A stretch of 64,000 bases of DNA from Psammoneis japonica. Its lineage: Eukaryota. Shown piece after piece: positions 2,916 through 41,833 of the stretch. Within the stretch, counting starts at the first letter, position 1; every line of letters starts with the position of its first letter. The notes under the pieces are model-generated. The model made no database searches. It had not been told where the DNA came from and was given only the letters and a program-made list of their open reading frames with translations. Where the stretch lies: positions 62,001 to 126,000 of the forward strand of contig QPGO01000110.1 in the NCBI GenBank assembly GCA_008632985.1, written 5' to 3'. A program made the translations under genes and the position numbers.

Positions 2916-5149
2916 ATTGTTGCCTCTGTGGAGAGGTAGCAGCTCTCCGGAAGAAGGTCGACAAAAACTTCTTCGTTTCCTATAGGTGCCAACTTACTTT
3001 CCTCTTTGAAGAACAGTGAACTTGTATTCGACATGAATTGAGCTCCCGTCGAAATAAGAATCTTGCTTACGCTCCTTCGTCGCCCGTCTTGTGATAGGTT
3101 GCCTTTCCGGCCTTTTGCTTGTTACTCTTCTTACCAGCGTTTAAAGCGTCAACGAGTTTTGATCGGCAGCGATAGCTGAGTTGGTCAAATCACTTGAGGA
3201 CCCCGAACTCGTTGAACTTGAATCCTGTTTCGAGTCATCGGATGAGCTCGCTCGGCGGGTAGCATGTCGTCTGGTCCGTGCACGGGAGAGCTTCTCCAGC
3301 TCCTTTGTTCCGTAACGGGACAGCTCAAACGTACGGTAGTCGCGTGGCAAAGATATCCTGATCCTTGTGCGCTTTGTGCTGAAGAAGACGCTTGCCGACT
3401 CTCACGTTGTAATTCATACCTTGACAACTCTGGGACCTGCTGGCGAAGGAATTCGCCGCCCTAACTATACAACTGTTTGCCGTTCCACTCTGGAAAAGCC
3501 AACTTCGGCCCAATCTACAAATCCATTATCAGAAGAGTCGATGCTTCGCTTCGACGGCTGCTTATCTTGGATTGCGAGCATTATTTCTGGTTCCAAGAGA
3601 AGCATAATTCCATATCGGTCGAATCCAACGAGGCCCTTCTATTGTTACCTCCAGCAGACTGCTCATAGCGATGGAGTGCCTCTCGTTCACCTTTAGACAG
3701 GCCCAGCTCCTCCCAACCCACTGAACTTACTCATATCTGGGTTGTAGATCAAGTCGTCTGCACAAGAGTTTAGCAATTTCTTTCCAAGACACTGCTTTCG
3801 ATGCAGTTCGGTTGAAAACGCATTCAGGAAATGACCTAAGGTTGATGTACGCTCATCCATTTGAACCAGCGGGAGGATGGTTGGCTCCTGTATCAATCAC
3901 ATATCAATCTTGCCATGTTGGCCATATGAAAAGTCAAGAGTTGCTCGAAGCTTCGTCCAAGCGATTCCTGTCCTAGCGATAAGGAGGCCATGAGGCTTCT
4001 TCTTGCTCATCATGGATTAATGCTTTATCAAATCATGACTGAGTGCCACGTTAATGTCGTCGTGGGCCAACATTGACTTTTTCGGGTGCTTGAATCCGTA
4101 GCATTTCCAATCTTATCTTTTGTGATTAACTGCCACATGGTGACTCTCGAGATGAATTCGATGACGCAAGTACGTTATCGATTCGCAGACTTGAAATATG
4201 ATGTCTGCAGCACCTGTATCCATTCCTATTGCAAGGTCAGTTGAAAAGGCTTAACATGTCACCAATAATCCTCGATTAGCGCTGCAGGGATAATTTGCTT
4301 GGAAGGTGTTGGCATTGTCTCTGTATGGATGCCAGAGTTATTCACAGGAGAGCTCAGAGCTGAAGAGTTTGATTTCTCCTTTCGCCCCGTTATCATGAAT
4401 TGCTGCGATACACCAGATGCATGCTGTCCTTCTCCGTATTGCTATCATTACTCGTCTTGATACGAATTATTCTCAATTTTCTAATTGCTGCTGTTCTTGT
4501 CGCTGCTGTCGCTCTTGTCGCGCTTGCTCTTGTAATAATCTTGCAGCCTAGAGGCGACAATCGCTTCAGGTTTCTCGTGAGAAAACAAATCGTGTCCTCG
4601 CTTCTCAATCTTTCGTACACTGGAAAAGTGCAAAGGCCAACAAACGTACTCTAGACGCTACAAATACTTGTGTGCGAGATCCTCCCGGAATCTTCTTGAC
4701 TGCGCAGAAAGTACGGTAGATGAATGAGAGAATGGTGAGACGCGGACGAAAGAAGATAGAGCTGCGTCTCATAATCTTTTTAAAAGCTAATTAACTTACT
4801 CAATGTTTCAAGCCCCATGTGTCTGTTGCGCTTGTTGGTTGCTGAGCGGGTATGTTTTGAGTTTGATGTCCGCCATGGTGACCTGTACCAATTACAGACC
4901 TCCCAAGCCGGGAGTGCTATGTCATCGCATCATCGCCACGCATCATCAATCGCCATCGTGGTCTATGCGTCGACCGAAAATGCCTAAGGCGCTCCGATAA
5001 CACCCGAACACCGCACCGCGATCTTCAACTTTGTCCAGATTGCCATGTCCAGGTTGCAATCATCATCTTCAAACACTTTGCTGAGCACTTCCATGATGTG
5101 TAGATGAGTGGCCATAATGTGGTTCTCTTCATTTTTCGTGGTGTATCTG

Positions 5150-8100
5150 TCCTGTCAAAATGACATTTGAGGGCGAAGGTGTCTGTGTCGTGTCAGTGAG
5201 ACATTTCAGGGTGTGTGAAGAAGTGCTCTGCTCGCCCTTGCCACACACTTGCTCTGGAAACAGGAAGAGAGAGAGACTGGGCCATTGGTTGGGGGCTCTG
5301 ACTACCCAACTTGTGGGTGGAAGACAAGAATGGCTGCACCACCCCTTTGCTGGGAATGCAAGAGCGAACTTCCGTGAAGCGGGGGTTGTCTGGCTTCCTG
5401 AGTTGGCAGATGACTGCAGCCATTTTTGATGGAGTGTCAAGCCCCAGAGACTCTGGCTCAGTGGAAGCAAGAAAAGCTGGGGAAGATGTGTGCTTGTTGC
5501 CTGACAACCCCTTTGTCATTCCTTGAACCAATGCAACAACAAAACTCTCCAGTGCCAGCTTGGCGGTGAGTGACCCAAAAATGGGCTGTTGGGGCTCATC
5601 TTTGAGAATGAGGTCTGCAAAGCAGGTCTGGCTGCTCTCGGTGTGTTTGGCACCAAGGGTGACATGGAATGCTTTTCATGATCAAGGGTGAGCAGCTGCG
5701 GCATCAGGCAGCCATTGCTTGCTCTTGTGGTGCTCAGCTCAACTTGAGAAATTCTCAAGCATTTGGTGATCTCTTTCTGAAGCTGCCTGTGCTGAGCCAA
5801 GTCATTTGTTGTGTGGCCATGCAGGCAAAAATGCACCAATTTTGAACACTCTGCTGCTTGAGAGCTGAATTTTAGAAATTCTCAGTGCTTGTCCTTGACT
5901 GTGAATATAGCTGGTCAATGCCACCAACCCCCCAGCACTGGCCAAGTCAGGCTCAACATTGTGTTGGTGGCCCTTCATGTCAGAGAAAGGCAGCTCTTCC
6001 TCTTGCTTGTTTCCTGAACATGCTGTCATCCTCTTGATTGGCAACAGCTTTGTCGCAGGCACCCCCCATCCACGCGGCAATGGCAAATTGTTCCCGGTCA
6101 GGACATGGGGGTGGCCCATGATGTTTTGGAACAATTGCTCAAGGGATGCTTCTTTGCTCTTGAGGGCCAGCAAGAGAGAGAAGCTTTGCTTCAAACCTGA
6201 TCCAATGATTGCAAATTGTCCTGTTCTTGGATGCTGGGATTGTGCCAAAGACTGGTGTCTGCTGGGGCACTGTCAAGAGTTCCCTCCTTGACTTGCTTTT
6301 GTCCTGACACCCAGCCTCCTCTTGGTTCTGCTTTTGTGGCAGCCAATCTTGACGGACATGGCAGCCCTCCTCTCCTTCCTTGCCATCATTTTGGACTGGA
6401 CAGCCTTGGGCAACTCTCTCTCTCTCTCTCCTTGCTTGTTGGATGACTTGGCCAAAGAAATCACTCGTCAGCTCTTTGCTGGTGCTTGTTTTTTTTGTTT
6501 TTGAGATGTTGGCCTCCTTTCTGACAGAGGAGCCTTCATGCTTTCATCACTTCAGGATCCATCCTTGGCAAGCCTGTTGCCTTGGTCTTGACAATCTTTG
6601 TTCCTGAGTTTTGTTGGAGATGAGTTTGTCCCCTGCTTCAGTGCTGACAGGCAGTTTTCTTGGTTTTCTGCGCAAATTTCTGTGCTTCTCTTGCAAAAAC
6701 TGAAAAGGTTGACCAGTGCATCAGAGGGGTCATGCACCTCACAGGTCTGATTCATTTTGCATCTCCTCATTGCCCACAAGGTGCTCAAACCATCACATCT
6801 CCAGAGGAGTTTTTTGGGAGCTGCTGTGCTCTCCCAAAAGTTGTCTGGTGGCTGGTGCTGCCTTTTTAGAATTTTGACTTTCCTGTCCAAGACCAAAAAA
6901 TGGCTGGCTGTTTGCTCACAGCTTTTTTTTGTGGAACATCATGTGTGAGATGCTGCTTTAAAACTGAGCCCATCAGAGTGAGCCACAAAATTTGGCGACA
7001 CCAACCAAATGACAGCGATGGCATTTTTCTCTCAGCTTTTTCTGCTTGCTGCAACCCACAACTGCAAAAACATGCACAGCAGCATGGCTCAACAATGCAA
7101 AGAAGCACCATGGGAAAAAAGAGCAGACACAGACACAACATGAGCATGATGGGAAATCAGCCACAGACAGCTGATGCATGATCAAAAGCAAAAAGAGCAT
7201 GTCCACTCATGAGAATCTCAGACCTCATCTCTGAGTTGTTTTCCAATCACTTGTCCTCACCAGAGAGAAAGAAAATGTCAGGAGATTCAGTGTGGACACA
7301 GGTCATTCCAGCCACACAAACCTCCAAGTCAGTGGCGCTGCTGCAGTTGCCAACAAAGTGAGATTGGGCTCTGACAATGGGCTCATTGCAAGGTTTTGCT
7401 GCTGAGTCTTTCATGCAGTTCTTGATTGCACAGAGTGTGGAAAAGGATTGAAAGTCAAGCAAGCAAGGTGCTGCTGTTGGCCTCAACAGCTCACAAGAAA
7501 GCAGCAGCAAAAGCAATTTGAAAGTGCAGGGGGCTCACAGCATCTGTTGCATTTCTGCAGTGCAGCCACATCATGGAAGGCAAAGCACAAGCAAACACCA
7601 TTGCTTGGGCAATGTGCCTGATTGGCAAACACAGGAATTTTTCTTCAGCACAGTCCTTCCATGAGCCACTTCATTTGGAGACAGAAAGATTGTGCGGATT
7701 GTGTCAAGGACCCTCCACATCATGAAGGGACTCTTGCACTTGGATGTGGTCTGGTGGCAGTGCTGTCCACATGACCTCACAGTGGGAGAATCCTTCCACT
7801 GTGCTTGCTGCTGGTGGCAATGACATTGTCAAAAAGGCAGCCAAGTGTGCAATGGCCATGAAGCCAGAACATGGGCCCATGCAGCAACTCACGTCATGGA
7901 AGACATTGCACACATTGGCATCTTGCATGTGGCAAAAAGTCAGAGAACATGAAGGCATGCAACAGGTGTTGCATTTCTTGGCATTGCTGCAGCGATGACT
8001 GCCCTGCCAAGGATTGGCGCAAGAGCCACAAGCGTGCAATGCAGCCCGCTGGAGGCCATGCCACAAGGAGCAGGCATTTCATGCACGTCAATCTCAGCTT

Positions 8101-8234
8101 TACAAATGGCGGCTTTGTGCACCTGAGGGACATGTGCCTCCAGAGGCTGCCAAGACATGTCCACATGAATCACCCAACATGCATCTGTGCAATGTCAAGC
8201 CAGACAACACACACTGCAACTGTCCGTTTTGCGT
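5150..8234. other. TpA- and CpG-depleted degenerate domain (decayed repeat/gene copies), host site of Copia element 1
   Basis: Only about 7 TpA in ~3 kb by manual count; strong TG/CA excess; overlapping Cys/His-rich, Tyr-poor ORFs. Confidence 0.8.
7915..8045 (+). pseudogene. MYND-type zinc finger remnant
   Basis: ACGKKSENMKACNRCCISWHCCSDDCPAKDWRKSHKR matches the MYND spacing C..C..CxxC..YCSxxCQxxDW..HK. Confidence 0.6.
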
Positions 8235-8403
8235 TGACAGACATCCGAGATGGGGAGTGCACTCCCTTGTGTCGGACAGACTGGCACAGACAGCATGGAG
8301 AGATCCGATGATCTCTCCTTTGCTCACTTTCTTTCTCATCTAGTGCACGATTGTCATCTGTCCTAGACATCCGTTAGATTGTCCCGATGCCGCTAGTCCG
8401 CAA
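8235..8403 (+). repeat. 5' LTR of Copia element 1
   Basis: Direct repeat of 15148-15320; begins TGACAG, ends CCGCAA. Confidence 0.95.
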
Positions 8404-8413
8404 GGTTGTGAGC
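8404..8413 (+). other. Primer-binding site (half-tRNA-iMet type), mutated
   Basis: GGTTGTGAGC directly after the LTR; one TA->TG change from GGTTATGAGC, the complement of the tRNA-iMet anticodon arm GCTCATAACC. Confidence 0.7.
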
Positions 8414-8843
8414 AGCAGTGTGCTGTTCCTCTTCTTCTGTGCTCCTCTGCTGCAATGCCCGTTGTGTGGTTTGGCGACTTTTTCTTCGTTGAAATCGTCA
8501 TCATTGTCACAGCCATTTTTTCACCTCTCGATTTGTGATCAAACGACCACCGCAGAACACATGCCAGAGCTCTGCGCAGGAATTTAATTTTTTTCCCGCG
8601 CAACCATGGTGAACAAAAATCAAAATGCCGTCGATTTGACCAAGATCAAGTCGATGCTGGTTGCATTCAACCCCCAGCATGGCTTGCCAGATGCCCATCA
8701 TTGCCTGAACATCCTTTGTTCCGACGAAGACACCTGCTCCTGAAGAACTTCTGGATGGATTTACTCCTCAAGGCCTCAAGAGCGATGCCACCACTGCTCT
8801 CCGTCACAAGATTGTTCATGACCTCATCATCCCCAAGGCTGCC

Positions 8844-11800
8844 TTGACTGAAGATCTCACACGGATTGGGCCGATCATGGACAAAGCTCCTCTCTTTGTG
8901 GCTGCTCCAGAAGCTTCTCTGGTTCATCTAAATCTTGCCAATCTTCAGAAGACTGTGATTGGCATGATCTCAGATGGTCAAAATGCCACAACGGTCTGTG
9001 TTGAGACCATGTTTCTCTTCTTCCGTCCTGATTTCCCGTCGCATGCATGTTGGGACGACATCTCGGATGCTCCACATTCAAAGACATCTCCAACCTCAAG
9101 TTCTGTGCCTCCACCGGTTGCTGCCACAAGTCCCACTCCTGAAGACTTTGCCAAGGCCTCAGCTGCTCATTTGCCTGGTCCAAAACAGTTTGAGCAAGCC
9201 ACGACAAACGCACTGAAGAACTCTGCTCCCAAGACATCATCTTTTGCACCGTCTGCCATGACTGCTGCTGGTGCGGCTTCTTCATTGACTGCTGCTAGTG
9301 CTTTGCACACCTTCAACCCGAAAGGACTTCCAAAGGATGTGCTGGCTTGCCATCAATGCAAAGAAGCCGGGAAAGCAGTGCTCGGAAAATCACTGGCACC
9401 TTGCAAGTCTGGAAACCTTTGTTGCAAGGACGGCACTGAGCGTCTCATCCTTGCCGATGGTTCTCTCTTTGTTCATCACACTGACTGGGATGCAAAGTCT
9501 TTCCTTTGTGACCCCCTCACTTGTGATGACATCTCTCCTCAAGGAATCCGTGCATGGCACACTGCTGTCACCCAACAAGCCTCGGCTTGTGGCACACACA
9601 TGCATCCTCTGTGGTGTTTTATCAAGGATGGTGGAAACTGGGGTTTCACCTGTGGCAATGATCCAACCGATGATCCACCTCTCCAAATGACGGCGGCACT
9701 TGACTGAATGAAACTGACCATCTTCCAGCACATTCAGAAAGTTGGAATTTTTCCTGCAGACTCCAAATGCCCTGACATTGTTCGTCAATGCTGTGGTGAT
9801 GGATGTGTGGCTGTCAAGATGATTCTCTTTGACATCCCACTGATTTGGACGAAGCGTCTGCATGAGTTGATCAAGAGCCACCCGCACCAAAACAATCTTA
9901 CGGTCCTTAGCTGCTGTGCTCCATTCAGAGACTGCCTCCAGCTACGATCCATCATCTCCAATGTTGATGCCTCTCTTGATGACCCTGGTGAGCTCGACAT
10001 CTTTCTCAGCAACACCCACTGTGGCGAGCACCTTCACCGTAAAACAGCGGATGCCCGGGAAGACAAGAACCAACAACACAAGTTCACCCAGAAGAAAATT
10101 GTTGAAACTGTCAGTGCGATTCTCAAGGAACCGGACAGCCCAGCTCTTCATGTCAAGGACCCTCCCAAATGTCCTCCACGTCGTCTTCACACTTTGCCTC
10201 CTCCTCCTCTCGCAGCTCCTGTCCGCGGTCTTGACTTGCTTCCCAAAGATGAAGTTTCTACTCTGCCTCCTGCGATTGAGGAGCCTCCCAAGGCAACTGA
10301 ACCTCCTGCTGTGGAAGAACCTGCGGAAACCATGGAGCATTTTGTGAATGAACTTGCTGCTGTGGATGTTCCTGCGCAGATGATGATGCACAAGCCCTCC
10401 ATGGTGTCCACAAGGCCTGCATCCACAGGATCAAGTCCTCTCCTGCCATTGCACAGAACCGTCCATGTGTTGTTTGTGGCAATGACCACTTGTTCCATGA
10501 GTGTCCTGTGTTGAATGATGCTGAGCACCTGCGCACTCATCTCATTCAGTTCTCCCAGTTCCTTCAATGTGATCAGCGTGCTCGTGATGCACCCAAGTCT
10601 GACACGGCCAGAAAGGATTTTTCCCAGGGCTGTTGTCATGTTCGGACACACAATGCCGCCCATCCTCCTCCCATCCAAAAACTCCTGCAAGCGGGGCAAC
10701 TGTGAAAGAGGGTCCAACCGACTCGTTGCCTTCCGCTGATGCTCCTCTTTCACCTGTCTCATTTGCCAACCTTCTTTTGGGCTCGACAAAGGCTGGTGCT
10801 CCTGATCCCAAGACGATTCCTGATGATGACCCTGGTGATCATAATCAGGGGAGGGCATTAGATCCCTCTACACTGGATGCTGCTGTTCCATTGTCTGCTG
10901 ATCAAGACCAAGAATTTGAGCATCTTGATGTGACCAACACCCAGCATTTGTCACCTCTCAGTGCCACACGCATCTCCCCAATTTTTTCTCCCCCGGAATC
11001 ACCTGCGACCTTTGCATCCTTGACTGCTCCAGTTGTTCCCATCAATCATGTCCTTTGTGATTCAACGATTTGTCATGCACAGATTGATGCTGGCACTTGG
11101 GCATCCTGTGCAGGGGACAAGAAACTCCTCCATGCCCATGCTCCCTTTGGACCGGATGATCCTTGTCCTTTGAAGATGCTTCCTGCTGCTGAAGGCTCTG
11201 ATGTGGTTCCTCATGGCTTTGGTTGTCTACAGGTGCCTGCAGACAATCCTGAAGGTTTTCTTCTTGTGCGCACCTTTTGCCATCCCAGCCTGCGTTCCAC
11301 TTTGATTGACGAGCATGATTTTGCGCAGGCTTCTGGTTTCAAACCTCAGTCCATTCGCTCCGAGCTTCTTGAGAAGACATGCGCCGACGGCACTTGCACT
11401 TACACTGCTTCCACTGATGCTCAAGAGGTGGTTGTCCATGGCACACTTCGACATGGCAAGGTCTTCACACAACCCCTGGTTCCTCCGTCTGCGTCCAATG
11501 TCCCTTCGACATCACTGACTCCTGACTTGTCCTTGGTTGATGACACTGATGATGCCTGTCAACGTGCAGTCTTTTTTGTCAACATCCAACAAGGTCCATC
11601 CGATCCCTTGCTGATGGACACAGAGCTGTTTTCCATGCAGTGTGACACAGCTCCCAACATCTCCCCTCCATTGTCTGCCTCTGCTCCTGTCCGCTCTCTC
11701 AAAGTTGAGACTGAACGTCTTCCATGGCATCAACGCCTTGGACATCCCAGCGATCACTGTTTGTGCCATGCTCACAAGTGTGTCAAGGGCGTCCCCAAGT

Positions 11801-14800
11801 TTTGACGTGCCAATCCTGTCCTTGACATGTGCCCTGCGTGTGTTCAAGCCAAGCAAGTCAAGACTCCCGCTGGTCCAAACATGACTTGGAAGGCAACCCA
11901 GCCATGCCAAGGTCTCACTGTAGATTTTGCTTTTGCTGGCCAGACTTCCAAGAATGAAGACCGCAAGGTTGATTGTCTTGGATGCAATGGTGAAACGTGT
12001 TGGATTGCTGTCTATGATCATCACACGCGGATGCTCCATGGAGCAGCGAGGGTTTCCAAAGCCAGTCCCCTCAAGTGGCTTTGCCGATTCTTGGATCGAC
12101 ATTCACCAAATTGTTGTGACAAATGTGTGTTTGTGGACCAAGGTGGGGAATCATGCAAAAACCCCAAAGTTCGTGACCTCTTTGAACGCGAATTCCAGCA
12201 TGACATCTGTCCTTCTGGCACTGGTGCATCCAACCAATGTGGACCTGTTGAACGCTCACATTTGACTGTTGAAAACGCGATTCGTGCAATTTTAATTGGT
12301 GCCAACCTTCCGATTCGATTCTGGCCCTGTGCATTTTGCCATTGCCTCCGCATCAAGAATGCTGCTCCTGCAAAAGATCAAGATGCGGCACCCATCACTC
12401 TTGCCACCGGAAAGGTCGAAGATTTTACTGCTCTGAAGACTTTCGGATGTCGAGCATGGTCCAAACGGTCCACTGCTTGTTCTGCCACCTTCCGGACCAA
12501 TTCCAAGAAGGGCACATTCCTTGGTCACCTTCCAAACACCCTCAAGAATGTCATGTGGTGGGATCCTGAGACTGACAAAGTCAAGACGGCCAAGCATGTG
12601 TGCTGCAATGAGGGCATGAATGACCTGTTTTTGGATCAACTCCCTCCCAATGCCATCCATTTGCAGTGTGTGGAAAATGGTCAGCCTTTTCCAGCTGAAA
12701 CACAGGACACCACCGTTCCTGTGTTCACGTCTTCGTTGAATCCTTTTGCTGCGACTGTCACATGTGCCATGAAACGTCCTCCAAAGGACCCCACTTGTGG
12801 TTTTGGATTTTCCCAGTGTGCGCTGATGGACCGTGTCTGTGTGTCGGAAATCAAGCAGCACAGTCCTGCGGCTTCCTTGTTTTCTTCCCTCCGTGCTGCC
12901 CGCAACAAGATTGTGGGTGCATGCGTTGTCTCTGTCAACAAGCGTGAAGTCGTTGCTCCATTGGATGCTGAAGAGGCCTCATTTCAGGTCTTCCATGATG
13001 AAATCCCAACTTTCGAGATTGCTTTTGCGCCGGAACGACGATTGGATTCTTGCACCCTTGACAAGGCATTTGAGGAAGCAGAGTCATTTGCACCTGACTC
13101 CATGGAGGACGACTCCCATGTTCCCGAACTCACTTTGGAAGATGTGCGATCTGTTGCGGCTCTTCTCCATCCTGATGATGATTTTTTGGATGAGGCCATC
13201 CCTGCGGATGTCTTCTGTGCACATCTCAATGCGATTGGCTCCCGCTCTCTCACTCCGGAGGAAGCTGCTCTTGACCGCCTCACCCGTGCCAAGCTTCATA
13301 AACTTGACACATGGCCTGAATGGGAAGAAGGCAAACAGCATCAATTGGATCAATTTTGTGCCCTTGGCATGTGTGGTCCTCCACAGCCATGTCCCCCTGG
13401 TGCGAACGTCATGCGTCCGCATTGGGATCACATGGTGAAGCCGGATGGACAACGTCGTTCTCGGCAATGTGGTGATGGCTCCAAGTCGGCAATGCCGGCC
13501 TTGCACAAGTTGACTTCCACCTGTTTGTTGTGTGTGGAACGCTCTGTCGAAAAGATGTTTTTTGCTCTCAGCGCGGCTGTGTTGCATCATGTCTTTGGTG
13601 GTGATGCCTGGGATGCCTGCGCTCATTCTCCTGGTCCTTCCCAGCAGGTTTTTGTTGCTGTTGATGATGCATGTGCCACCTGGTGTGAAAAGAGATTTGG
13701 CAAGACAGTGCCCCACCATTGTGTTCTTCCGCTCAAGCATGCTCTTCAAGGTCATCCTGAGGCTGGTGTCCTCTGGGAAAAGCGCATCAATTCGATTCTC
13801 ACAGGTGCGAAACTTCTTTTCCACAATGCTGCTCACGACAAGTGCATCTGTTCCGGTGAATGTGATGGTGTCAAGGTCCTTCTCCTTTGTCAGGTCGATG
13901 ACTTTGCTCTTGCTTGTCCTTCTGAAAGGATTGCAAAAGAGATCTACGACCATGTTGGCAAGGCTCTCCAGATGGAGAATGAGGATGCTCCTCCCTTTAA
14001 GCATTTGGGCTTGGTTGCTGAATTCAATGGTGTTGATGTCATCCAAAATGACGATTCAATTGCTGTCAACATTGCCAGTTGCCTTGACCGTGTTTTCAAG
14101 ACACATGGTTGGGATGCTCCTGCTGCGCATGAGTCTGATTCTGATTTCAAGGCTGCACCTGTTCCGGTTGATTGCACTCCTGATCTGCACGCCACTGAAG
14201 GTCCTGAAGAGGGCACACCTGAGTGTGACACTCTCGCTGAGTCCCAGAGATTCTCTTGCCATTCTGTTTTGGGTGAGTTGGTCTTTGCCTGCTCTTGTTG
14301 TCACTTGGACATTGGTCATCCTGTTGTCACCTTGTCCAAGTTTTCCAAGGCCCCGGCTGAGCTTCATTGTGATTCACTCAAGCATGTGGCCAAGCATTTG
14401 TGGTGCACCAAACATTGGGGGCTGACGTGTGTGAAGTCTGGGCGCGATCCCAGTCTGCCTCCTTGCGATTTCAAATGGCTTGAGGATGACCCATCTCTCC
14501 TGGACTTTCCTTGTGCTGAAGACTTTTTCCAACTTCTTGGTTTCATTGATGCGGCACATGCCAATGAACTGTGGCGTCGCCGTTCTGCTGCTGGACATGC
14601 GCGTGTCCTCCTTGCTGGTGCTGCAATTGACTGTCGATGCCGCGCGCAAATGATTGCGCTGCCAGTTCCACGGAAGCTGAGTTTCTCGCGGCTGTTGCTG
14701 GTGTGAAACAGACCCTGTGCCTCCGCATGGTTCTGGAAGAACTGGGCTTTCCCCAGCGTGATCCTGCTCCCTTGCACATTGACAACTCCTCTGCTGTCCA

Positions 14801-15005
14801 GATGATCAACAACAAGGTGCCTGCGGAGCGATCCCGCCACGTTGACATTCAACATTTTGCTGTCCAAGACTGGCGTGACGCAGGCAAGATTGTCACTCGA
14901 CACATCCCGGGTGTCATCAACCCTGCTGATGCACTGACCAAGGCTGTGGGTTGGGTGCTCCATTCCCGCCATGCTGCCTGCCGTTTGATGGGACATTGCC
15001 GTTGA
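8844..15005 (+). pseudogene. Copia gag-pol (gag, GAG-pre-integrase, integrase, RT, RNase H), broken by stops and frameshifts
   Basis: WHQRLGHPS pre-integrase motif; integrase DFAF..DQGGE..VERSH; RT QVDDF; RNase H SSTEAEFLAA..IDNSSA..RSRHVDI..NPADALTK. Split across ORFs 8844-9707, 9708-10514, 10633-11805, 11827-14706 and 14637-15005. Confidence 0.9.
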
Positions 15006-15137
15006 TTGTTGTTGGGTTTGTTGTGGATTGAGTCTTGGGTGTGTCTCTGTTTTATTTGTTTTTTGTCTTTGCCATTCTGGTCCTCTCTTTTTATTCGGAT
15101 CGTCTCTTTCTTTCTTGTTGAGCATTGCAATGCTCAT

Positions 15138-15147
15138 CAGGGGAGGG
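15138..15147 (+). other. Polypurine tract of Copia element 1
   Basis: CAGGGGAGGG immediately upstream of the 3' LTR. Confidence 0.8.
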
Positions 15148-15320
15148 TGACAGACATCCCCGAGATGGGGAGTACACTCCCTTGTGTCGGACAGACTAGC
15201 ATAGACAGCATGGAGAGATCCGATGATCTCTCCTTTGCTCACTTTCTTTCTCATCTAGAGTACACGATTATCATCTGTCCTAGACATCCGTTAGATTGTC
15301 CCGATGCCGCTAGTCCGTAA
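15148..15320 (+). repeat. 3' LTR of Copia element 1
   Basis: Direct repeat of 8235-8403; begins TGACAG, ends CCGTAA; followed by TSD TGCGT. Confidence 0.95.
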
Positions 15321-16016
15321 TGCGTTCTTGCCTCCCAACACCAGCTTGTCACTCTGGCAAAAGCAATGAGGAAGATTCACAAGAGATGGACGCAAAACAA
15401 CCATTTTGAATGCTCCTCATTCTCTGGCATCAATGCCAGAGACATTGCTTCTGGAAGGAAGGCATCTTCCTCCACTCGACCTTGTTGAAATCTGACACAA
15501 TGTAACACCATCATTTGCTGTGAGAAAGAATGAAGAGCGCCCAAATCAAAGAAAAGGAAACCCAAAATTGAAAATTCAATGTCTCAAATGACCCTGCTGT
15601 CAGAGTGTTCCACCTAAAAGCACACTTCTTGGAATGGATCGCTGCTGCTTGCCGGCACGAGTGAGGAGCTGTGCTTGATGAGATCACACCTCTTCGTGTG
15701 AATTTAGCTGCGCTTTCGACCTGCCTCCAAGCGCTTGGCAAGCTGTAGCTGTCTTGAATACTACACCTTCTATTTTGGCATGACTTAACCTGCGAAGCGA
15801 GAGATGAGGACTAGTTCGTAATCGTGAATGCTAGCTAGTAGATAGAGTTACCGCTTTGCCCATCCGGACTTTGGCTTACCCGCGTACTTGTTGTAATATA
15901 AGCACCTCCTACGAAGCACGTACTCTACGTTATCACTCCTATCGCACTCAACATCATTGGGGCTACAGTACTGTCAGGTGCAACTAGCTAAAATTGGTTT
16001 TTAACGTACACATCGC

Positions 16017-16687: not shown

Positions 16688-16999
16688 TATTACGAATCAG
16701 GAGGTATGCAGCAGGAAAAGACACAAAGTAACAGACAGCGTGCGTGATGGATGGCAACAACAGGCATTACAGTGATCAGTGATCACGAAAAAATGATGGC
16801 GCCGCATCCACGTGTATCTCGGCGGTTGTGTTGCACGTTGAACTCCCGCCGACAACACGTCATCTGATTTTGGCGTCCATCCAAGACCGAAACAGCGACC
16901 TGCTTTTACCGTAGTACAGCATGGAGAGGCGCATGCGGCTCAGAGGACCCAAGTTAGTGCGTAGAAGAAAACCTCACGGGTGTCGTCCATTTTGCATTT

Positions 17000-19010
17000 A
17001 GAGCAAGCAGAGAGGGAGATTCCGTTGTCCATCGCGAGCTTTTCACAATCTCATCTTGCACACAGCACACAAAAATCTTCGCAACACAACCCATCGTGTG
17101 ACGGCGGCACTTGTTGCTTTTTCTCGTGGCTGGAGCGCCGCAGCTGACGAGCCCCAGCTCTGGGTGGGACTTCGCACTGCCGGACTGCAGCAAGAGAGTT
17201 TTTTGGTCATGCACCACACATGGTGTCCAAACATTTCTGTGTGTGTGTTTCTGCAACACTTTTTGATGCTCCCTGTTTTGTGAAGAACATGAAGCCAAAC
17301 ACAGTGCTTTTTTCATTCTGCCCATTTGTGAAAGCAAAAGTTGGCTGGGCACATTCTTCGATGCCCACAGAATGTGCCCAGCAAACTGGAAATGATGTCC
17401 TCCAAGAATGAAAGAGGAGGATGCAATTGCAAAATTGCCCCCTTTTTTCTGTTGGTGACAGTTGACATGTTGATCACCAAACAAATTTCTTGCTGCGAAG
17501 CTTGCAGAATTCAGCATGTAAAAGCCCCATGGAGTCCCACCCAGTGCTGTCTGTGCAGCACTCAGCATGCCTCATCCCCCCCCACACAACTCAACATCCT
17601 TCCTCGCACACTCTTTTCAGTGCTCAACTTAAGAAACTTGCGCTCCAGCTCTGGGCAGAGTCTCTCACACTGCTGGGCTGTGACATCAATTGCTTTTTTG
17701 TCATGTGCCACTTGTCTCATGCATGTGCACTTCTGTTGCAACTTTGGTGGCAATTTTGCATCATTTTACAGGGAAATTGTTGGGTGGTTCATTCTCAATG
17801 ACTTTTGACATTTGGTGGGTGGGCGGTGGTGCAGTGCAGGCAGACTTTCAAAAATGACAAGTGCAAACCACAGGTGCAGCTGTGTGATCCCCTGGCATTT
17901 TATTTTGTGACTTTTTGTGCTTTTGAACATGTTCCAAGGTGCTGCTGATCTGGTGGGTCTGACTGCCTGCCATGTGATTTGAGAACTTCCTGACCACAAT
18001 CTAGAAAAGTGCTGGCCAGCAAGCTGGGTTTGCACCATCATTTTCAGCTCAGAACAAACCCCGCACAAAGGGCCCTGGTGGAAACTGTGCTCCACTTTTT
18101 ACAAAATTGGTGTTCTTGCCCACAATCAAAAAGCTGGTGCCATCCTTTGTTCTTGTTGTTTTGTCGCTGCAGCATCTCTTCACTCTTGTGTTCAGTGCAA
18201 CAACATGCCACCTCCTGAAGACTTGCCCTTCCCTTCATCTGACACTCTGGTTGCTGATGCTTTGAAAGCACAACTTTTGCCCCTGCTTGTGCCATTGTTG
18301 CTGAAGATGTGCATTTTTTGCATCCTCAAATGTTTTTCTGCATCTGGCTTGCTGTTGATTGGCTCAGCTGGATGGCACGAATGTCAACATCTTTCCATGC
18401 TGCAAGAACCATGTGTCACCATGTGTGTTGTGCCTTGTGTGTCCCATCTGATTGTGGCACACCAAGGTCTTTCACATTGACTTAAGCCAAGTCAACCCAC
18501 CCACTTGAGGTGAGTTGGCAGGCTGTTCACTGCGTTCCATGCCAACCATGCCAGTTTCAGGCCCAACTCATCTCAAGTCACATCTCATGGCAAGCAGCAT
18601 GTCTCATCAGATTTCACCTTTAAAAATGCCGGAGTTCTCTTTCACATTGACTTGAGCCAAATGAGCTCATCCACTGAAGGTGAGTCAGCATGCTGTCCAC
18701 TCCATTCTGCACCAATCAGTTTCAGACCCCACTCATCAAGTCACATCATGGCAAGCATTGGATGTCACCTTTGAAAATGCCAGAGTCTCTTTCAAATTGA
18801 CTTGAGCCAAGTGAACCCAAGGCAGAGTCGGCAGGTCACTCACTCCATTCTGTGCCAATCAGTTTCAGGCCCAACTCATCAAGTCATGTCATGGCAAGCA
18901 TCAGATTTCACCCTCTCTGCATCAAGGCATTCGCTTTTGGACGAACCCCACATCAACATTTCCGGTGCACCACATTCCTGCGAGTTCTTTGGTTGATCCA
19001 TGGTGAGCTT
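17000..19010. other. TpA/CpG-depleted degenerate domain of unidentified repeat
   Basis: Abrupt loss of TpA between two normal genes; contains a tandem repeat. Confidence 0.7.
18471..18912. repeat. Three degenerate tandem copies of a ~150-170 bp unit
   Basis: TTCACATTGACTT(A/G)AGCCAA...CAGTTTCAGGCCCAACTCATC recurs at ~18471, ~18641 and ~18791. Confidence 0.8.
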
Positions 19011-19243
19011 TCATAATTAGAGGCCTCTTGCCCGTCGCATCAAGCAAGCGATTGCCTTACGAATCTTGAAAGACTTCAAAAGGTACAGTATAGAACTCGC
19101 ATTAAAATCATTAGAAAGGAATGTATGAATCTTAACGACTGACGATACCCAGAGCAGACGGCATTTTTGTCAGCCCACAACTCCCAAGCTAAGCATCGAC
19201 ATCAATTCTTCTATCATTTGTCACTTGACCAATGCTGCTGCCT

Positions 19244-19825: not shown

Positions 19826-20300
19826 TGCATAAGGTGAGATGAGGTGCTTGTATGATCTACTAGGGGGCCCTAAATCAGTTGCGACTCTCGCGAAGTATCG
19901 TTGTCAAACTTGAAGACGGCGCAACTCGTATGCGGTATGCAATGGCTCTCCTCCACTTAAGTAGCTCTGCAAAATGAAGAACCGACTTGAAAAGAAGCAA
20001 TGTCAGAACGACCCGTCGCAAACAGCCTTTCATACACCGGAAATGAACTGCTTATTGCAAGCGCCGAGAAATGATAGATCGATGTTCCGCGATTGTGCTG
20101 TTTGCTGTTAGCAAAGGACACAACGATTTTCCTATTTCTGAAATAAAAACGCGATAAAAGGTCAAAAAATTAGTCGTGACGTCATGCTTTATTTGATAAT
20201 CCCTTCATCTTTTGAAATTTGAATTGACAATTTTTGAAAATCCAAATCCATACCTCAACTCATCAACTCACAACTCACAACAATATAGAGTGAAAGCTCG

Positions 20301-21308
20301 ATGACGTTCTCTCCGCCTCCCATGCCGTTGCTCTCCATTTCCAGTCCAGAAACGATTGAAAAGTGCTCTCTACTGCCTCCATGTAATTCTGATATATTCA
20401 TTTGCTCATATCCCAAGAGCGGGACAACTTGGACGCAGCACATTATTCTGTCGCTGCTCTTCTGTCACTTGACCAACACTGCAACAACCTCTTCAACGCT
20501 GCCACCCACTTACAATCACGTGTCCGAGTACGCTCCGTTTTATGAGATTGATGCACACTGGGAAGAGGAGAGCAACAAATTGATACCACGTATTCGAGAA
20601 AATCACGAGAAACTGGGACGAAGAGTCTTCAACACACACTTGCGTTTCGACATGCTTCCAAAGCCTCGCTCAAAAGACGACGCTCCAAAGCTGATTTACA
20701 TTGTTCGGTCACCTCTCGATGTATGCGTCAGTTTCTATCATCACCTTTCACACCAAGTTGAGGGTGGATACGAAGGTTCTTTTGATGCCTTCTTTTCGGA
20801 TTGGATAAAAGGCAGAATTGCCTTTGGTTCGTGGGTGCATCACGTCCTGTCCTTTGCGCAAGGCATGACCCATGGAAACGAAACTAGTGGACATGTTATT
20901 CGATTGGAAGATGGCCGGCAGATTCTGTTGCTTTCTTATCAAGACATGGTGGAGGATCTAGCCTCAGCGGTGCAACAATTGGTAGACTTCTTGGAACTGC
21001 GTGTTTTTGCTGAGGATTTGAAAGAGCTCGTGCCCAGCTTTTCATTTCAAAGCATGAAGGATGATATGGATCGTTTCCAGCCTCAGAGTGTGACATGGAA
21101 GAACAATTTCTCTTTCTTAAGAAGGGGCATATCGGGTGACTCGGCGGAACTCGTGTCCAAGGAACAAGAAGGAGCGTTTCGAGAGTGGATTGAGAAGGAA
21201 AAATACAAGGAGCTCTTGTCAAGCTGGTTGGAAGGAGCTCATCCATTGCTATTGAGCAAGTTTATTCAATTGGCGGAGGATGATAAAACTGGAGGAGCAT
21301 CCTATTAG
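20301..21308 (+). CDS. Sulfotransferase (Sulfotransfer_1 family)
   Basis: 5'-PSB SYPKSGTTW, 3'-PB RSPLDVCVSFYH, C-terminal FLRRGISGD. Confidence 0.92.
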   Translation: MTFSPPPMPLLSISSPETIEKCSLLPPCNSDIFICSYPKSGTTWTQHIILSLLFCHLTNTATTSSTLPPTYNHVSEYAPFYEIDAHWEEESNKLIPRIRENHEKLGRRVFNTHLRFDMLPKPRSKDDAPKLIYIVRSPLDVCVSFYHHLSHQVEGGYEGSFDAFFSDWIKGRIAFGSWVHHVLSFAQGMTHGNETSGHVIRLEDGRQILLLSYQDMVEDLASAVQQLVDFLELRVFAEDLKELVPSFSFQSMKDDMDRFQPQSVTWKNNFSFLRRGISGDSAELVSKEQEGAFREWIEKEKYKELLSSWLEGAHPLLLSKFIQLAEDDKTGGASY

Positions 21309-23334: not shown

Positions 23335-24313
23335 CTACGGCGATGCTTCTTTCACTAGATTCTCTGAAAGCTCCCATAGTATCCGCGGTGCGTCCTTTCC
23401 TAAACTGTCCACATACTCCGTTTCTTTCGTCGCAACATCTCCGTCCCGATATACTGTCCCACTCTTCAGTTCCGGCTCGATCACGGCAAACACAATGTTT
23501 TGCGCTCCTTGTACCGTACTCCGCTGGATCAAACGCATTATTGGTATTGCCGTGGCTTTTTTGTACCATGCAAAACTCATATTCCGAGCTAGACTTGATC
23601 GGCAAAACCCTGGGCTAACTGCTACAGCTGTGACTCCCTTTTCATTGCCGAGATGCTTTGCCGTAAGTGCATTCATGAGTTTGGAATCACAGTATCCAGT
23701 AGGAGCAAAGCTTGGTTTACTGTCATGTTCGTCCTCTACTTGACGACCGTCTCGAACGAAATCCTTTTTTCAAGATCCAGCTTCCCGACGTCATCAACCC
23801 AGAACCCACAATCACAATCCTGTCCTGAACAAAGCCAGTCAATTCCTGGATAAGCGCAAAGTGACCAAGATGATTGACACCAAAATGAATTTCAAATCCA
23901 TCCTTGGTTTTCGCGTGTTGATCCATTGGAACCCAGACTCCAGCGTTGCAAATCAACGTATCGATTTTGGGATACTTGCTTTTGAGAGCAGAACTGAACT
24001 CTCTCACTGATGCGAGTGACGCTAAATCAAGCTCAAAGACATCAACCGGAAGGGAAGACCCGATGGATTGAGATGCTTCTTTGGCTTTTTCAATGTTTCG
24101 GCACGCAATCACAACTTGAGCGCTACGTTTTGCCAGATCCTTGCTGCTTCGAGTCCTAAACCACGTTTGCTCCCGTGATTACTATCGTTTTCCAGTCAAA
24201 TCACACTCCTTGGACCTGCAGTCAATCCATCCTCGAGCAATACGACGACGAATGAGGTAAAGTGCCGACCCAATCACACCAACAGTGCCGACAGTGGTGC
24301 TAAGGACCGCCAT
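23335..24313 (-). CDS. Short-chain dehydrogenase/reductase, retinol-dehydrogenase (RDH11-14)-like; frameshifts probably assembly errors
   Basis: N-terminal TM anchor; IACRN..KA; LDLASLASVREF; LICNAGV; DGFEIHFGVNHLGHF; VSPGFCRS. Confidence 0.85.
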
Positions 24314-24478
24314 TGTCAGCAGAATTTTCTTTTTTGGAGCCTTCGATGTGAATTGTGAGGCTTGTTGAGATTCCGCATTCTGCGTTTCAAAGATACCGTT
24401 TGGTCGCGGATTTGTTCGTGGAAAGCTGACGTGCAAGAAGCACGCACGACACCAAAAAGTGAGACTGACTCATCCTCC

Positions 24479-25445
24479 ATGACAGCAACCAACACCGTCA
24501 ATCAAAGCAAATCATGGCAACAACTGGCCTCAAAATCTGTAATCAACACCATCAAAGCACTGACAACAATGACGTTCAATGGCAACCAGGCCGGAATGGC
24601 CATCTTTTTAATATTTGCAGTTTTTGCCAACGCGTGGTTTGTGTTGAAATCTTCGTTGCGAGCCTTTCGCAAGAGACAAGACGACTCGTTAAAGGCATTC
24701 AATCCATTTCGACAGCAGCTTTTGAAATATTCCGTCCTTGCCATGGCCTTGTTTGATATTCCATGGGTATGGCTCTGTATGATCAGTGCTGGAACAACAT
24801 GTTGACAGAGCCAAACAGTTTTCATCAAAGCACCGGCGACGATAGCTTTGGATGCAAGTTTATGGGTTTCTATTCAAGCTTTTCTCTCATATCCATGATG
24901 GGAAGCCATTGTCTCGTGGCGTACTACTTGATGAATCTGCTCAACAACCGTACCAATGACGAAAGAGGTTCATTTTTGGATAGCACCCGAGGTTTGATAT
25001 CCATGTCGGTACTCATTTTGATTACGGCCGTGCTGTTTGGCCTCATGCCACTCATGCAAGGCGACGGATACAGACTAACAAACGGTGGATTCTGTTATGC
25101 TGACTTTACCAACAGCACGCAGAGTATTGTGATTTTGTCCTTTGTGGTATTCTTTTTGCTCCTTGCCGCGATGCTTTGGATCAGAATTGGTAACTGGAAG
25201 AAGTACTGGGTTTATTATGCCTTTTTCTTTTGCACGTGGATCTTGTGGGTACCCGCCACATCTTATGGAATTGCCACTGGAGACGAGATTGCAAGTCCGT
25301 ACATGATTATTGGTGCTATTGTCGGTCACAGCAATGCAATCATCAATCCAGTCCTTTACGAGTCAAGCTGTTTCAACAATTGAAGAGACAATCTGATTCC
25401 GAACAAGACGCTTACGTTGGCATGTCCAAAGAGTTTGAGCCGTGA
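24479..25445 (+). CDS. Class A (rhodopsin-like) 7TM GPCR; frameshifts probably assembly errors
   Basis: TM1 FANAW, TM2 LAMALFD, TM3 GCKFMGF, ECL2 GGFCYADF, TM6 ILWVP, TM7 NAIINPVLY (NPxxY). Confidence 0.75.
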
Positions 25446-25680: not shown

Positions 25681-26729
25681 ATAGAAACGACGACATCAAA
25701 GTATTCAACGACATCGCAAGCGCTACGACCGCCATCGTTGTCCACAGACATACGCACGGAATAAGTAACGCGCAAATAAAGATTGCTATATTGTACTTTT
25801 AGTCTTTCTACTTCTATTGGGAAAGTTTCAAAGAGTGTTTCAAATTTGCTATTGAAATGGTTGCGTAGGGTAACGTTGCCTCAAGAGCTCCATCAAAAGA
25901 TGGCGCTCAAGCTTTTACGTATCTTATTCAGAGAGAAAAATATCACTCTAAAAAATGTAAAAGGGGGGACGTACTACGGAGACAACAAGAAAACTTGCGA
26001 GTCAACCGCGTGCTAAATCAACACTCCCTACGAGTGAAGACTTACCGTATCATGTCACTGATACGACGGAACCCCAAACCCGTGTTCCGTCAACGGTGTG
26101 ATCTGCTTGGCGAGCTTTTGCTGCTTCGCAGATGAACGCTGCTGTCTGTTTCAACAGCCGTGACCTGACGGGTCAAGCGAACAGGCAACTTCCTGCGGTC
26201 AAAGACACAGGAGCAACATGGACTCCAGGCCGGAGACACGCATTCGATTTGCCCCGACCTCCGGACTTAACTGGCAACACCTGCGCCACCTGGCGACAAC
26301 ACGCCATCAAGCTAAATGAGTTGTGGAATGCCAAACGAGAGCGAGTGCTCAATCCAGAGGAAGGGCGAGCCATCCTTGGCGATTACGGCATTCAGGCTTG
26401 GCAAACAACAACACTCGTGCGAGACGACGAGTTGTGATCGAAAACGAGCGCGAAATTCCGACTGTGTCGTGACCGTTGCTATATTTCTCAATCACTATCA
26501 TTTTTGTGTGCTTTTGTAGAAGTAATACCATGATTTCGTATGTAGAACATTCGTTGGGACTTGGTACTTTACAAATTATTACTAATTCCTACGTAGACCT
26601 TACGGTTGCCGTACAAAACGCCAGAAAAAACTGCCGCCGATGCGTCTTCCTTTGCGCGCGCGCGCCGTTGTCAAGCAGGTCCGTCCGTCCGAGCACCACC
26701 AGAATTTCATAATGGCATGTTCATAATGT

Positions 26730-27950
26730 GACGATGCCCTCCCTTTTCCCCGTGCCGATTCTCTCCGTGCTGCTCTCTCTTTTCTTAACCCTGTGAATGA
26801 TCCCTCCTGCAATCCAGAGCTCACTTCTGGCATCCGCTTCCTTGGACAACCTCTTGGCTCCCGAGATTTTGCCAGTTCCTTCCTGTCTGGCATCTCCTCC
26901 ACTCTCTCGCACAAAGCTGACATGCTCCTTGCTCACCTTCACGACAAGCAAACTCAAGGTCAACTTTTCAAGCACTGCTTCATTCCCACCTTGGCTCACC
27001 TCCTCGGTGCCAACTTCCACTGCAACTTTGATCCCAACAATCCCTCCGATCCCTTGCTTTGGAGACCTCGCCCTTTCAAGACTCGCTTCTCACCATCACT
27101 CACCGCTTTCTCTGCTGCATCGCCTCTCATGCTGCTCCTTTCCCTGATCACTCTTTGGCCACAGCCTTTCTCCCAGAGCATTGCTTGGGGGCCTTGGCCT
27201 TTGAGACCCAACGGCTGCTGCCATTCCATCGCTTGTGTGGTTTCCTTGCTTCGTTCATTTTGCTTTGCCTCTCACGGCATCAAGCTGCCACCAGGTGCTG
27301 CAATTGCTCTTCCTCACTGCTTTGGGGTTTCTCTGTCCTCCTGGCACAACCCTTGATCTGCCCTGTGACTCTGCTCCATCTTTTGCCACCATGCCTCGAT
27401 TCTTGACTCTGCTTCTGCCCTTTCTCCTGCTTCCTTGTCTGCGCTTGTCAAGTCTGCTGCTCTTCCTGGCTTGGCTCGTTGGCTGCATCATGATCATCAG
27501 CAGCATTCTTGCTGATGCCCCCTCTGAAATGCAGATCTTCCCACCTTTGCTGCTGTCTCCGCTTGCCAGTCTGCCTCTTCACTCCTTCTCCCGCCGCTCT
27601 TCAAGTTCCCGCCTCTCTTCCAATGTCTGCATCATTGCCATTCAATGCAAGCTGCGTCTTCCTGTCCTTCCTCCTTCTCTTGTTGACACACCCTGCTCTT
27701 GTGGTCACACCATTCTGGATGCTTGTGGCGACCACGCCTTCTCTTGCCGTGGCACACACAAGTCCAAACTTTTCAATGGCCTGTGTGACACCCTCTTCAT
27801 TCCAGCTCAAACTTTGGGCCCCCTTGCTCAACTGTGCTGCTCCTCCACAGACGTCCACCTTGAACCCCTCAATTTGCTTCCTTCTCAGCCTCTCCTTTGC
27901 CCTGCCAATGTTGGCACATCCGTTGCATTCAGCACACTCCGCGATCTGTG
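26730..27950 (+). mobile_element. Non-LTR retrotransposon remnant (RT C-terminus + Cys/His knuckle)
   Basis: GIRFLGQPLGS (RT thumb-region motif) and CSCGHTILDACGDHAFSC; frameshifted; TpA-depleted. Confidence 0.65.
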
Positions 27951-34200: not shown

Positions 34201-34242
34201 ATTTCAACAACAGCGACGACACAACACAGTACGGTAACCACC

Positions 34243-35203: not shown

Positions 35204-35265
35204 TACATAATATACGGATCAGAGGTACTGGTAGCGTTGTTTTCTTAAATTTTGATACGATGATT

Positions 35266-36265: not shown

Positions 36266-36514
36266 CTTTCTTGAGACAAGTCGAATGATGAATGACGCAA
36301 CAAAGTACTGTACACTGTACCTGTCGGATGCAATTTCTGGAAATCAAAAAATGTGAGGGAGTGTGAGTCAGTCTTGACTTTCAGATTTTGCTGTTTGTGC
36401 TTTTGGAGCTTCCGTAGAAATGACGTGGAAATGGACAGTACGGAGAAACATGACGTCACGAAGAAAAGCCTGTTTTCTCATTTTTTTTGTTTCAGCCGCA
36501 CAAAATCTTTGACC

Positions 36515-37659: not shown

Positions 37660-37890
37660 TAGATATAAAAAGTTTGGAGCCAATAATACAACGAATAGTA
37701 ATGATTCTAACTTGTGTGTTTATTGTTTTAATACAAACAACTTGTGCTATGCAATACCGAGACCCAGTGATGTTTCGGAAAAAAAATATTGAGCGCATGG
37801 CTTTTGTGCCGTGGTACTGATAGATGTAATCCTTGGAGCCAACAAAAGAACGAATAGTACTGATTCTATCTTGTGTTTATTGTTAAAACA
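37601..37890. repeat. Tandem duplication of the SCO1 3' end and downstream flank (~130 bp)
   Basis: GACCCA..GATGTTTCGGAAAA..ATTGAGCGCATG..TTTTGTGCC..GTACTGATAGAT at 37601 and 37762. Confidence 0.85.
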
Positions 37891-37897
37891 ACTCGTG

Positions 37898-41634: not shown

Positions 41635-41833
41635 TAGTTTTTACAGTATGTTCGTTCGTTTTTGCTGGCGTTGAATGTCTGGCCGCTGGCCGTCAGCATC
41701 GTCGTTGCGCGAATTATGCGCGCTCACTCTAGAGCACGCAGAAAAATAGCGCGGCCCATTTTTTTCTGCATCCGCCCTGCTGTTTTCATCATTGACATTG
41801 TTCTGTGTGATGCTGTTTGATGTTTGACGTTAT

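Follow-up and report, generated by a model that had tools for sequence, protein, structure and literature searches.

Within a 64,000-base stretch of Psammoneis japonica DNA (contig QPGO01000110.1, positions 62,001 to 126,000; hereafter the window, with all coordinates counted from its first base), we analyzed a Ty1/copia retrotransposon, Copia 1, the two long terminal repeats (LTRs) of which differ from each other in a highly selective manner. The 5' LTR, which we take to be the mutated copy, spans positions 8235-8403 (169 nt, plus strand), and the 3' LTR, the apparently unmutated copy, spans positions 15148-15320 (173 nt, plus strand). An earlier note, made from the DNA letters alone, had placed the LTRs at these limits, and the limits hold, as the pair is bounded by the target-site duplication TGCGT, read directly both on the left (8230-8234) and on the right (15321-15325). 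In addition, the contigs of a public run (X1) fit the limits of the 5' LTR, with unlike sequence before position 8235 in 14 contigs and after position 8403 in 8 contigs. The duplication, together with the polypurine tract GGGGAGGG (15140-15147, plus strand, also read directly), which abuts the 3' LTR, indicates that both LTRs belong to one insertion. At each of the six substitutions that separate the LTRs, the 3' LTR has a TA where the 5' LTR has a TG or CA, and about half of the window is made up of tracts from which TA has been largely erased. As detailed below, we consider it probable that both observations are explained by a region-limited hypermutation that acted after integration and that turns TpA into TpG or CpA.

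Between its LTRs, Copia 1 carries, on the plus strand, a Gag-like open reading frame (8844-10514) with one in-frame TGA (9705-9707) and without a Pfam match, followed by a Pol frame (10633-14706) in which Pfam and homologues place the protease region, the integrase, the reverse transcriptase and the start of the RNase H, and which likewise has one in-frame TGA (11803-11805). A frameshift near 14640-14706 separates this frame from the C-terminal portion of the RNase H, which lies on the plus strand in another frame (14637-15005) and was located by alignment (61% identity over 105 amino acids) to the C-terminus of homologue P0002. The SH3_retrovirus domain scores above the Pfam cut-off, and the gag_pre-integrs and RVT_2 matches are weak and fall below it, as is to be expected in a mutated copy. 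The first two of these domains, in the order gag_pre-integrs and SH3_retrovirus, lie upstream of RVT_2, and the homologues carry the same three domains. The nearest proteins are Copia polyproteins, the best named one of which is from the diatom Cylindrotheca fusiformis. Direct LTRs, a short target duplication, a purine tract, and an integrase placed before an RVT_2-type reverse transcriptase identify Copia 1 as a Ty1/copia LTR retrotransposon, present here as a dead copy.

Copia 1 thus resembles the Ty1/copia elements of diatoms in its LTRs, five-base target duplication, purine tract, and RVT_2-type coding region, in which gag is followed by protease, integrase, reverse transcriptase and RNase H. 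It differs from them in being only 45-48% identical to the nearest proteins, in being dead, and in the end of its LTRs, which is ...CAA or ...TAA and not CA. These ends read ...CGCAA in the 5' LTR (8399-8403) and ...CGTAA in the 3' LTR (15316-15320), in place of the usual ...CA, with the end fixed by the five-base target duplication. We also note that the in-frame stops of gag and pol (one in each) are both TGA, with none else, and could represent either a gag/pol boundary signal or mutation. Over the six frames of the TA-erased region 8404-15147, we counted 333 TGA, 19 TAA and 12 TAG codons, for comparison with positions 34101-50700, and 26 overlapping frames of at least 100 amino acids lie on both strands over 8000-15500, which makes this region a trap for gene callers. 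No tRNA genes were found within the 64-kb window.

Alignment of the two LTRs of Copia 1 yields 169 shared columns, 163 of which are identical and six of which carry substitutions, together with two 2-base gaps (CC and AG). Given as 5' LTR/3' LTR, the substitutions are 8259 G/15174 A, 8283 G/15198 A, 8287 C/15202 T, 8345 G/15262 A, 8353 G/15270 A and 8401 C/15318 T. At all six sites, the 3' LTR has TA, and the 5' LTR has either TG (8258-8259, 8282-8283, 8344-8345 and 8352-8353) or CA (8287-8288 and 8401-8402). This is the pattern that the earlier note had described, with every substitution in one direction, two 2-bp indels and no other change; its observation that the CpGs are intact is likewise confirmed, with eight per LTR, all retained in both copies. 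The 3' LTR contains ten TA (15173, 15197, 15202, 15256, 15261, 15269, 15281, 15292, 15311 and 15318), compared to 11.4 expected from its composition, and the 5' LTR keeps four (8341, 8364, 8375 and 8394), every one of them in a YTAR context (where Y is a pyrimidine and R a purine). The loss of TA therefore amounts to 6 of 10 in the 5' LTR versus 0 of 10 in the 3' LTR (Fisher p = 0.011), which supports the suggestion that the changes are patchy and that the 3' LTR escaped.

Chance is a poor explanation of these six sites. The possible single transitions that would yield a TA-versus-TG/CA pair make up between 36/169 and 42/173 of the total (f = 0.21-0.24), such that the chance of obtaining six such pairs, f to the sixth power, is ~0.9-2.0 × 10⁻⁴, and requiring, in addition, that all six TA fall within one copy multiplies this value by 1/32, to give ~3-6 × 10⁻⁶. 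As the target duplication is intact, the LTRs must have been identical at insertion, and the differences between them arose afterwards. Furthermore, because the targeted class accounts for all six differences, the remaining columns contributing none, the divergence between these LTRs gauges exposure to the mutator and not age, and the claim that LTR-divergence dating is invalid here is therefore borne out.

The LTR differences are embedded in a much larger pattern. We defined TA-poor tracts as those with a TA observed-to-expected ratio (O/E) below 0.2, with O/E calculated from base composition. Such tracts take up 33,000 of the 64,000 bases of the window, hold both Copia 1 and a second element, Copia 2, as well as blocks of repeats, and combine a TA O/E of 0.04-0.17 with a TG/CA O/E of ~1.5-1.9. 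All frames with Pfam matches to cellular gene families (EF-hand, MAPEG, sulfotransferase, TPT and SNF2) lie outside them. The tract that concerns us most runs from 5150 to 15050, and thus through the upstream flank (TA O/E 0.04, with 7 TA in 5150-8234 compared to 197 expected), the 5' LTR, and the interior of Copia 1 (TA O/E 0.06, with 24 TA compared to 396 expected). None of nine frames taken from the upstream flank (5129-8311) matched a Pfam domain.

This loss of TA is distinct from the ordinary decay of CpG and outpaces it, as the tract that holds Copia 2 has a low TA O/E (0.17) with a near-normal CG O/E (0.92), whereas older tracts are low in both. The older tracts, at 26651-34100, 57751-63500 and 16951-19050, have a TA O/E of 0.04-0.09 and a CpG value of 0.18-0.34, and are built of tandem or dispersed repeats of ~70-200 bases, for example at 29892-31192, 58396-58643, 61163-62031 and 18468-18912. 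A further stretch at 23701-24600, within an otherwise normal gene region, has a TA O/E of 0.24 and a normal CpG value (0.92), and could be either a young or small tract or the product of chance.

At its downstream end, the tract of Copia 1 has a sharp edge, with 0 TA in 14000-15050, where ~55 would be expected, and a normal density of TA from position 15053 onward; we place the edge between ~15000 and 15173. The 270 bases that follow (15051-15320, including the 3' LTR) form an island with 12 TA compared to 18 expected, near the O/E of 0.58-0.78 found in gene regions. Downstream of the insertion lies a short TA-poor stretch (15321-15745, with 3 TA compared to 29.6 expected), a remnant of the older tract, and after these 425 bases comes normal DNA, with the EF-hand gene 700 bases further on. 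An unmutated island flanked on both sides by TA-poor stretches, with its start near the LTR border, could also suggest that the patchiness is secondary, with gene conversion having reset the 3' LTR from a family copy or put a mutated LTR into the 5' position. The family is indeed repeated (3483 contig pieces of run X1 align to the element), and the LTRs are less CpG-decayed than the interior. However, apart from the six sites and two gaps, no base differs between the LTRs, the target duplication has been preserved, and sharp tract edges occur elsewhere in the window as well, such that gene conversion is not needed to account for this one, and we consider it unlikely to be the source of the asymmetry.

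Copia 2 (50677-57785, minus strand) provides a replicate of these observations. Its LTRs lie at 50677-50953 and 57510-57785, and its polyprotein frame (50901-56687, minus strand) is open over 1928 amino acids, with an RVT_2 match (E 1e-24). Unlike Copia 1, the element has canonical TGACAG...CTGTCA ends. Its LTR pair again shows six TA-versus-TG/CA sites, with the TA always in the 57510 copy, and further contains four TG-versus-CA doubles, three CG-versus-TG/CA sites and two other changes, the 50677 copy being the more mutated of the two. The strand polarity of the TA changes is 4:2 in Copia 1 (four A>G and two T>C on the plus strand) and 3:3 in Copia 2. The intact target duplication, the presence of both polarities within each pair, and the erasure of TA from non-element DNA and tandem repeats together indicate that the changes arose on integrated DNA, in agreement with the proposal that they occurred after integration and on both strands.

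When considering the timing, it is necessary to also weigh editing prior to integration, either of the RNA genome by an ADAR-like activity or of the complementary DNA (cDNA) by an APOBEC-like activity acting on adenine, with the asymmetry between the LTRs arising from reverse transcription. Editing of retroelement RNA or cDNA is well-known in animals and is taken up in the Bigelowiella natans preprint considered below, and the interior of Copia 1 is far more mutated than its LTRs. In the retroviral replication model, however, a single template gives rise to each segment in both LTRs, such that RNA editing would yield identical LTRs, and cDNA editing would leave a single polarity and a changed 3' LTR, whereas we find both polarities and, in Copia 1, a changed 5' LTR. 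Neither LTR pair thus shows the combination of one strand polarity and LTRs identical at integration that marks this type of editing, and the upstream DNA at 5150-8234, which is not part of the element, has been erased as well, as have tandem repeats elsewhere in the window. This makes pre-integration editing a decidedly improbable source of the changes.

Further insight comes from the sequence context of the TA that were lost and of those that survived. Among the 99 TA that survive in tracts other than that of Copia 1, 42 stand in YTAR, 47 in mixed and 10 in RTAY contexts, compared to 215, 685 and 433, respectively, among the 1333 TA outside the tracts (chi-square p ~1e-11). Sorted by the base 3' of the A, the survival ratio is 0.26 for T, 0.89 for C, 1.28 for G and 1.87 for A. 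The LTRs tell the same story: in the 5' LTR of Copia 1, all five non-YTAR TA changed and four of the five YTAR TA were kept, and, when both LTR pairs are pooled, 11 non-YTAR TA changed and 2 were kept, versus 1 changed and 7 kept in the YTAR context (Fisher p = 0.002). In 11 of the 12 LTR events, the changed A precedes a pyrimidine on its own strand. One context rule therefore fits the tract survivors and the mutated LTR sites alike, namely that the process prefers an A that stands after T and before a pyrimidine (5'-TAY), with T favored over C.

The LTR pair alone cannot give the direction of change, and other evidence from within the window is therefore needed. This evidence is found in the first instance in the coding sequences, where tyrosine codons are TAY, cysteine codons TGY and histidine codons CAY. 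In the 23 columns of Copia 1 in which Tyr is conserved in at least 4 of 5 homologues, the element has Tyr in 1, Cys in 14, His in 6 and Phe in 2; in the 24 such columns of Copia 2 (Tyr conserved in at least 5 of 7 homologues), the corresponding counts are 6, 13, 2 and 3. A:T-to-G:C changes thus account for all six LTR sites of Copia 1, and for Tyr to Cys or His replacements in 20/23 conserved columns of Copia 1 and 15/24 of Copia 2. The reverse replacement is not observed in either element, as none of the 33 columns with conserved Cys (12) or His (21) in Copia 1 has turned into Tyr, and Copia 2 keeps His in 17/17 columns. As Copia 2 also keeps Arg in 41/42 columns, the loss of Tyr is almost its sole damage. 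The last pol reading frame of Copia 1 is left with 2 Tyr in 959 amino acids.

When both elements are pooled, conserved Tyr turned into Cys 27 times and into His 8 times, an excess that the 5'-TAY preference predicts. A related bias, an excess of TG over CA on the plus strand of the window, is seen in both elements; a transcription-strand cause for it was considered and dropped, since the elements lie on opposite strands and yet share it, and the 5'-TAY rule explains the bias at Tyr codons. We also find 20 adjacent TG-versus-CA doubles in nine repeat pairs inside the tracts (768 bp) versus 0 in four pairs outside them (404 bp). Two neighboring transitions are needed for each such double, as would arise where two copies resolved a single ancestral TA (or CG) on different strands. 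Taken together, the protein columns, the TA counts, Copia 2, and the context rule support the earlier assignment of TA as the ancestral and TG/CA as the derived state, and we consider this direction to be well supported, albeit indirectly, with the 5' LTR being, as we infer, the changed copy at the six sites.

Taking the opposite direction, which resembles repeat-induced point mutation (RIP), the LTRs would have been TG/CA ancestrally, and the 3' LTR would have gained six TA by C-to-T changes at CpA. The ambiguity of the LTR pair leaves room for this, the CA at the last site would restore a more canonical LTR end, and at two window-private places among the variable places considered below (best 40 of 2032) the window has TA where nearly all other contigs have TG/CA. 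RIP-like gain should, however, produce an excess of TA, and there is none anywhere, with a maximum TA O/E of 0.70 across 2-kb windows of the 64 kb. Moreover, the direction of the amino acid replacements is the wrong one, the long frames of Copia 1 contain no TAA or TAG nonsense codons and are broken by TGA, the new TA would have to fall in just those contexts that are absent from the mutated tracts, and the relatives of the host gene described below are from diatoms, not fungi. We thus regard a RIP-like direction as very improbable. Least probable of all is an artifact, whereby a modification of TpA within silent repeats would cause A to be read as G during sequencing or assembly. Systematic miscalls due to modified bases do occur on some platforms. 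However, run X1 (which may be the same sample as the assembly) contains 0.64 of the sampled 31-letter words of the window and 582 contig pieces that are at least 99% alike, a miscall cannot make the TGA stops, the frameshift, and the CpG-type Arg losses of Copia 1, and it is difficult to see how a systematic miscall could leave the two LTRs of one sequence in partial and differing states. Run X1, tentatively a DNA run, was the one public run in which the stretch was found, with no RNA run listed.

Several observations nevertheless weigh against a region-limited hypermutation after integration, or at least complicate it. A simple domain-wide process would not be expected to leave the 3' LTR untouched when the interior on one side of it is free of TA and the flank on the other is poor in TA. 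In Copia 2, the LTR that lies beside an old tract is the less mutated one, which means that there is no simple spreading rule, and for this reason mutation spreading from a neighboring old tract was dropped as a candidate. CpG-type loss is seen at 14/48 conserved Arg in the interior of Copia 1 compared to 0/16 LTR CpGs (p = 0.014), such that part of the decay of the interior may predate the insertion, or the LTRs may have been homogenized. At the last of the six sites, the more usual ...CA near the end of the LTR is found with the CA version, and thus with the one we take to be derived.

There are also limits to what other copies of the family can tell us, since the ancestral state of the six LTR sites is one that we infer, and not one that is seen in an outgroup copy. 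Low-stringency blastn within the window found no further LTR or interior copies besides the two LTRs, and a metagenome scan with a 33-base LTR pattern gave 0 matches. The best 40 of 2032 variable places, which do not include the six LTR sites, show no net direction among those that are private to the window, with two having CA here where TA is found elsewhere, and two having TA here where TG or CA is found elsewhere. We note, however, that most family copies are possibly mutated themselves, in which case the majority state at an ancestral TA can be TG/CA, and the consensus is thus a weak test of direction. Finally, sequence alone does not distinguish A>G on one strand from T>C on the opposite one, such that a thymine-directed chemistry would leave the same footprint, and both the enzyme and the signal that would target it are putative.

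Taking these points into account, our preferred reading, hypermutation of integrated DNA, can be put as follows. A Ty1/copia element would have integrated with LTRs that were identical at that stage, after which a regionally limited process would have turned TpA into TpG or CpA by A:T-to-G:C transitions on either strand. Its range would have extended from the older upstream repeats across the 5' LTR (6/10 TA) and the interior (~94% fewer TA than predicted from composition), ending within ~170 bases of the 3' LTR, which was left untouched. At each target, the A of a TA, preferably one with a pyrimidine on its 3' side, would be converted to a base that is read as G. The six LTR differences would then be early hits of the same TpA-erasing hypermutation that appears to have cleared TA from about half of the window while sparing the genes.

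In terms of chemistry, the leading candidate, which we put forward tentatively, is enzymatic deamination of adenine in DNA, giving inosine that is read as G, perhaps by an enzyme of the ADAT/TadA type. This suggestion draws on analogy, in that A-to-inosine deamination by ADAT2/ADAT3 (TadA family) would give A>G, and the natural tRNA target of these enzymes, A34, follows U33, which would match the requirement for TpA. Amphioxus ADAT2 has been reported to deaminate DNA (PMC10354150), a report that the B. natans preprint also cites. No deaminase gene was found in the window, where no search aimed at one was made. The process may serve as a defense aimed at repeats or at silent chromatin. A somewhat more speculative proposal is that diatoms carry a chromatin- or repeat-directed DNA adenine editor that acts on 5'-TAY on either strand within sharply bounded domains, that may be shared with, or convergent on, a system in chlorarachniophytes (see below), and that would kill transposons by recoding (Tyr to Cys or His) and not by nonsense.

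Two known systems invite comparison. The RIP of ascomycete fungi, which depends on RID/DIM-2 and is pre-meiotic in its timing, is similar in being a dinucleotide-specific transition hypermutation of repeats and transposons that disables their coding capacity and spares nearby genes. It differs in outcome, as RIP makes C:G-to-T:A changes, mainly CpA to TpA (PMC2621366), and thus raises TA and nonsense codons, whereas here TA falls and is never enriched, G+C rises, TAA and TAG vanish, and the frames stay open, with no replacement of His or Cys by Tyr and with host-gene relatives that are diatom.

A much closer match is found in the chlorarachniophyte Bigelowiella natans, where, according to a recent preprint (Mettrop et al., bioRxiv 10.64898/2026.01.13.699255), mutation-accumulation lines acquired 231 changes in two integrated viral regions, 230 of them A>G or T>C and every one of these at TpA. 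The same source describes a directly measured, ongoing mutation rate that is raised roughly 1000-fold, an enrichment of reverse-transcriptase and DDE domains among TpA-poor coding sequences, and a proposed ADAT/TadA-like deaminase (10.64898/2026.01.13.699255). The two cases share the near-exclusive A>G/T>C change at TpA, giving TpG or CpA depending on the strand, its confinement to foreign or mobile DNA, and the imprint that it leaves over the long term, namely clustered windows in which TpA is low and CpA+TpG is high. They differ in the host, which is a member of the Rhizaria in the case of B. natans, whereas the host gene looks diatom here, and in the targets, which are integrated giant-virus and virophage DNA there and LTR retrotransposons and repeats here. 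They differ also in that the rate was measured in mutation-accumulation lines in B. natans and the process is known here from its footprint alone, and in the extent of the loss, as the hypermutable regions of B. natans are described as keeping TpA at 3.3% of dinucleotides, compared to near-complete erasure in our tracts. Moreover, we find a 5'-TAY preference, and a search of the preprint text by terms gave no mention of sequence context, flanking bases or trinucleotides, nor of diatoms or retrotransposons. Our literature searches found no description of a TpA-erasing process in diatoms. The finding presented here is thus a further case of a recently described kind, in an alga other than B. natans.

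If our reading is correct, a second and unrelated algal lineage would have an A:T-to-G:C mutator targeted against mobile DNA, raising the possibility of a general defense; if, in addition, the mutator is an adenine editor, algae would widely possess an equivalent of RIP that has so far been overlooked. The LTR pair, its target duplication still intact, serves as a natural time-stamped experiment. It points to a process that acts on integrated DNA and on either strand, has sharp edges and favors 5'-TAY, all of which helps to narrow down candidate enzymes; should a DNA adenine deaminase of natural origin emerge, it would also be of interest to base-editing research. For diatom genomics, such a process would mean that LTR-divergence dating overestimates age, that transposon copies quickly escape similarity searches, and that TA-free DNA, being without TAA and TAG stops, gives rise to long false reading frames on both strands.

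Among the genes that lie outside the tracts, the host sulfotransferase gene (20289-21308) has 288 relatives, and all of those with an organism name among the best 120 are from diatoms, with a best identity of 59%, which makes it most likely that the window stems from a diatom without close kin in the collection searched. We also observe a 604-amino acid open frame at 41828-43642 (plus strand), in DNA of normal composition, with SNF2-related and Helicase_C matches. A Protein Atlas search, which gave no useful taxonomy for this frame, placed it nearest to clusters that are for the most part viral (Uroviricota, and one Nucleocytoviricota).

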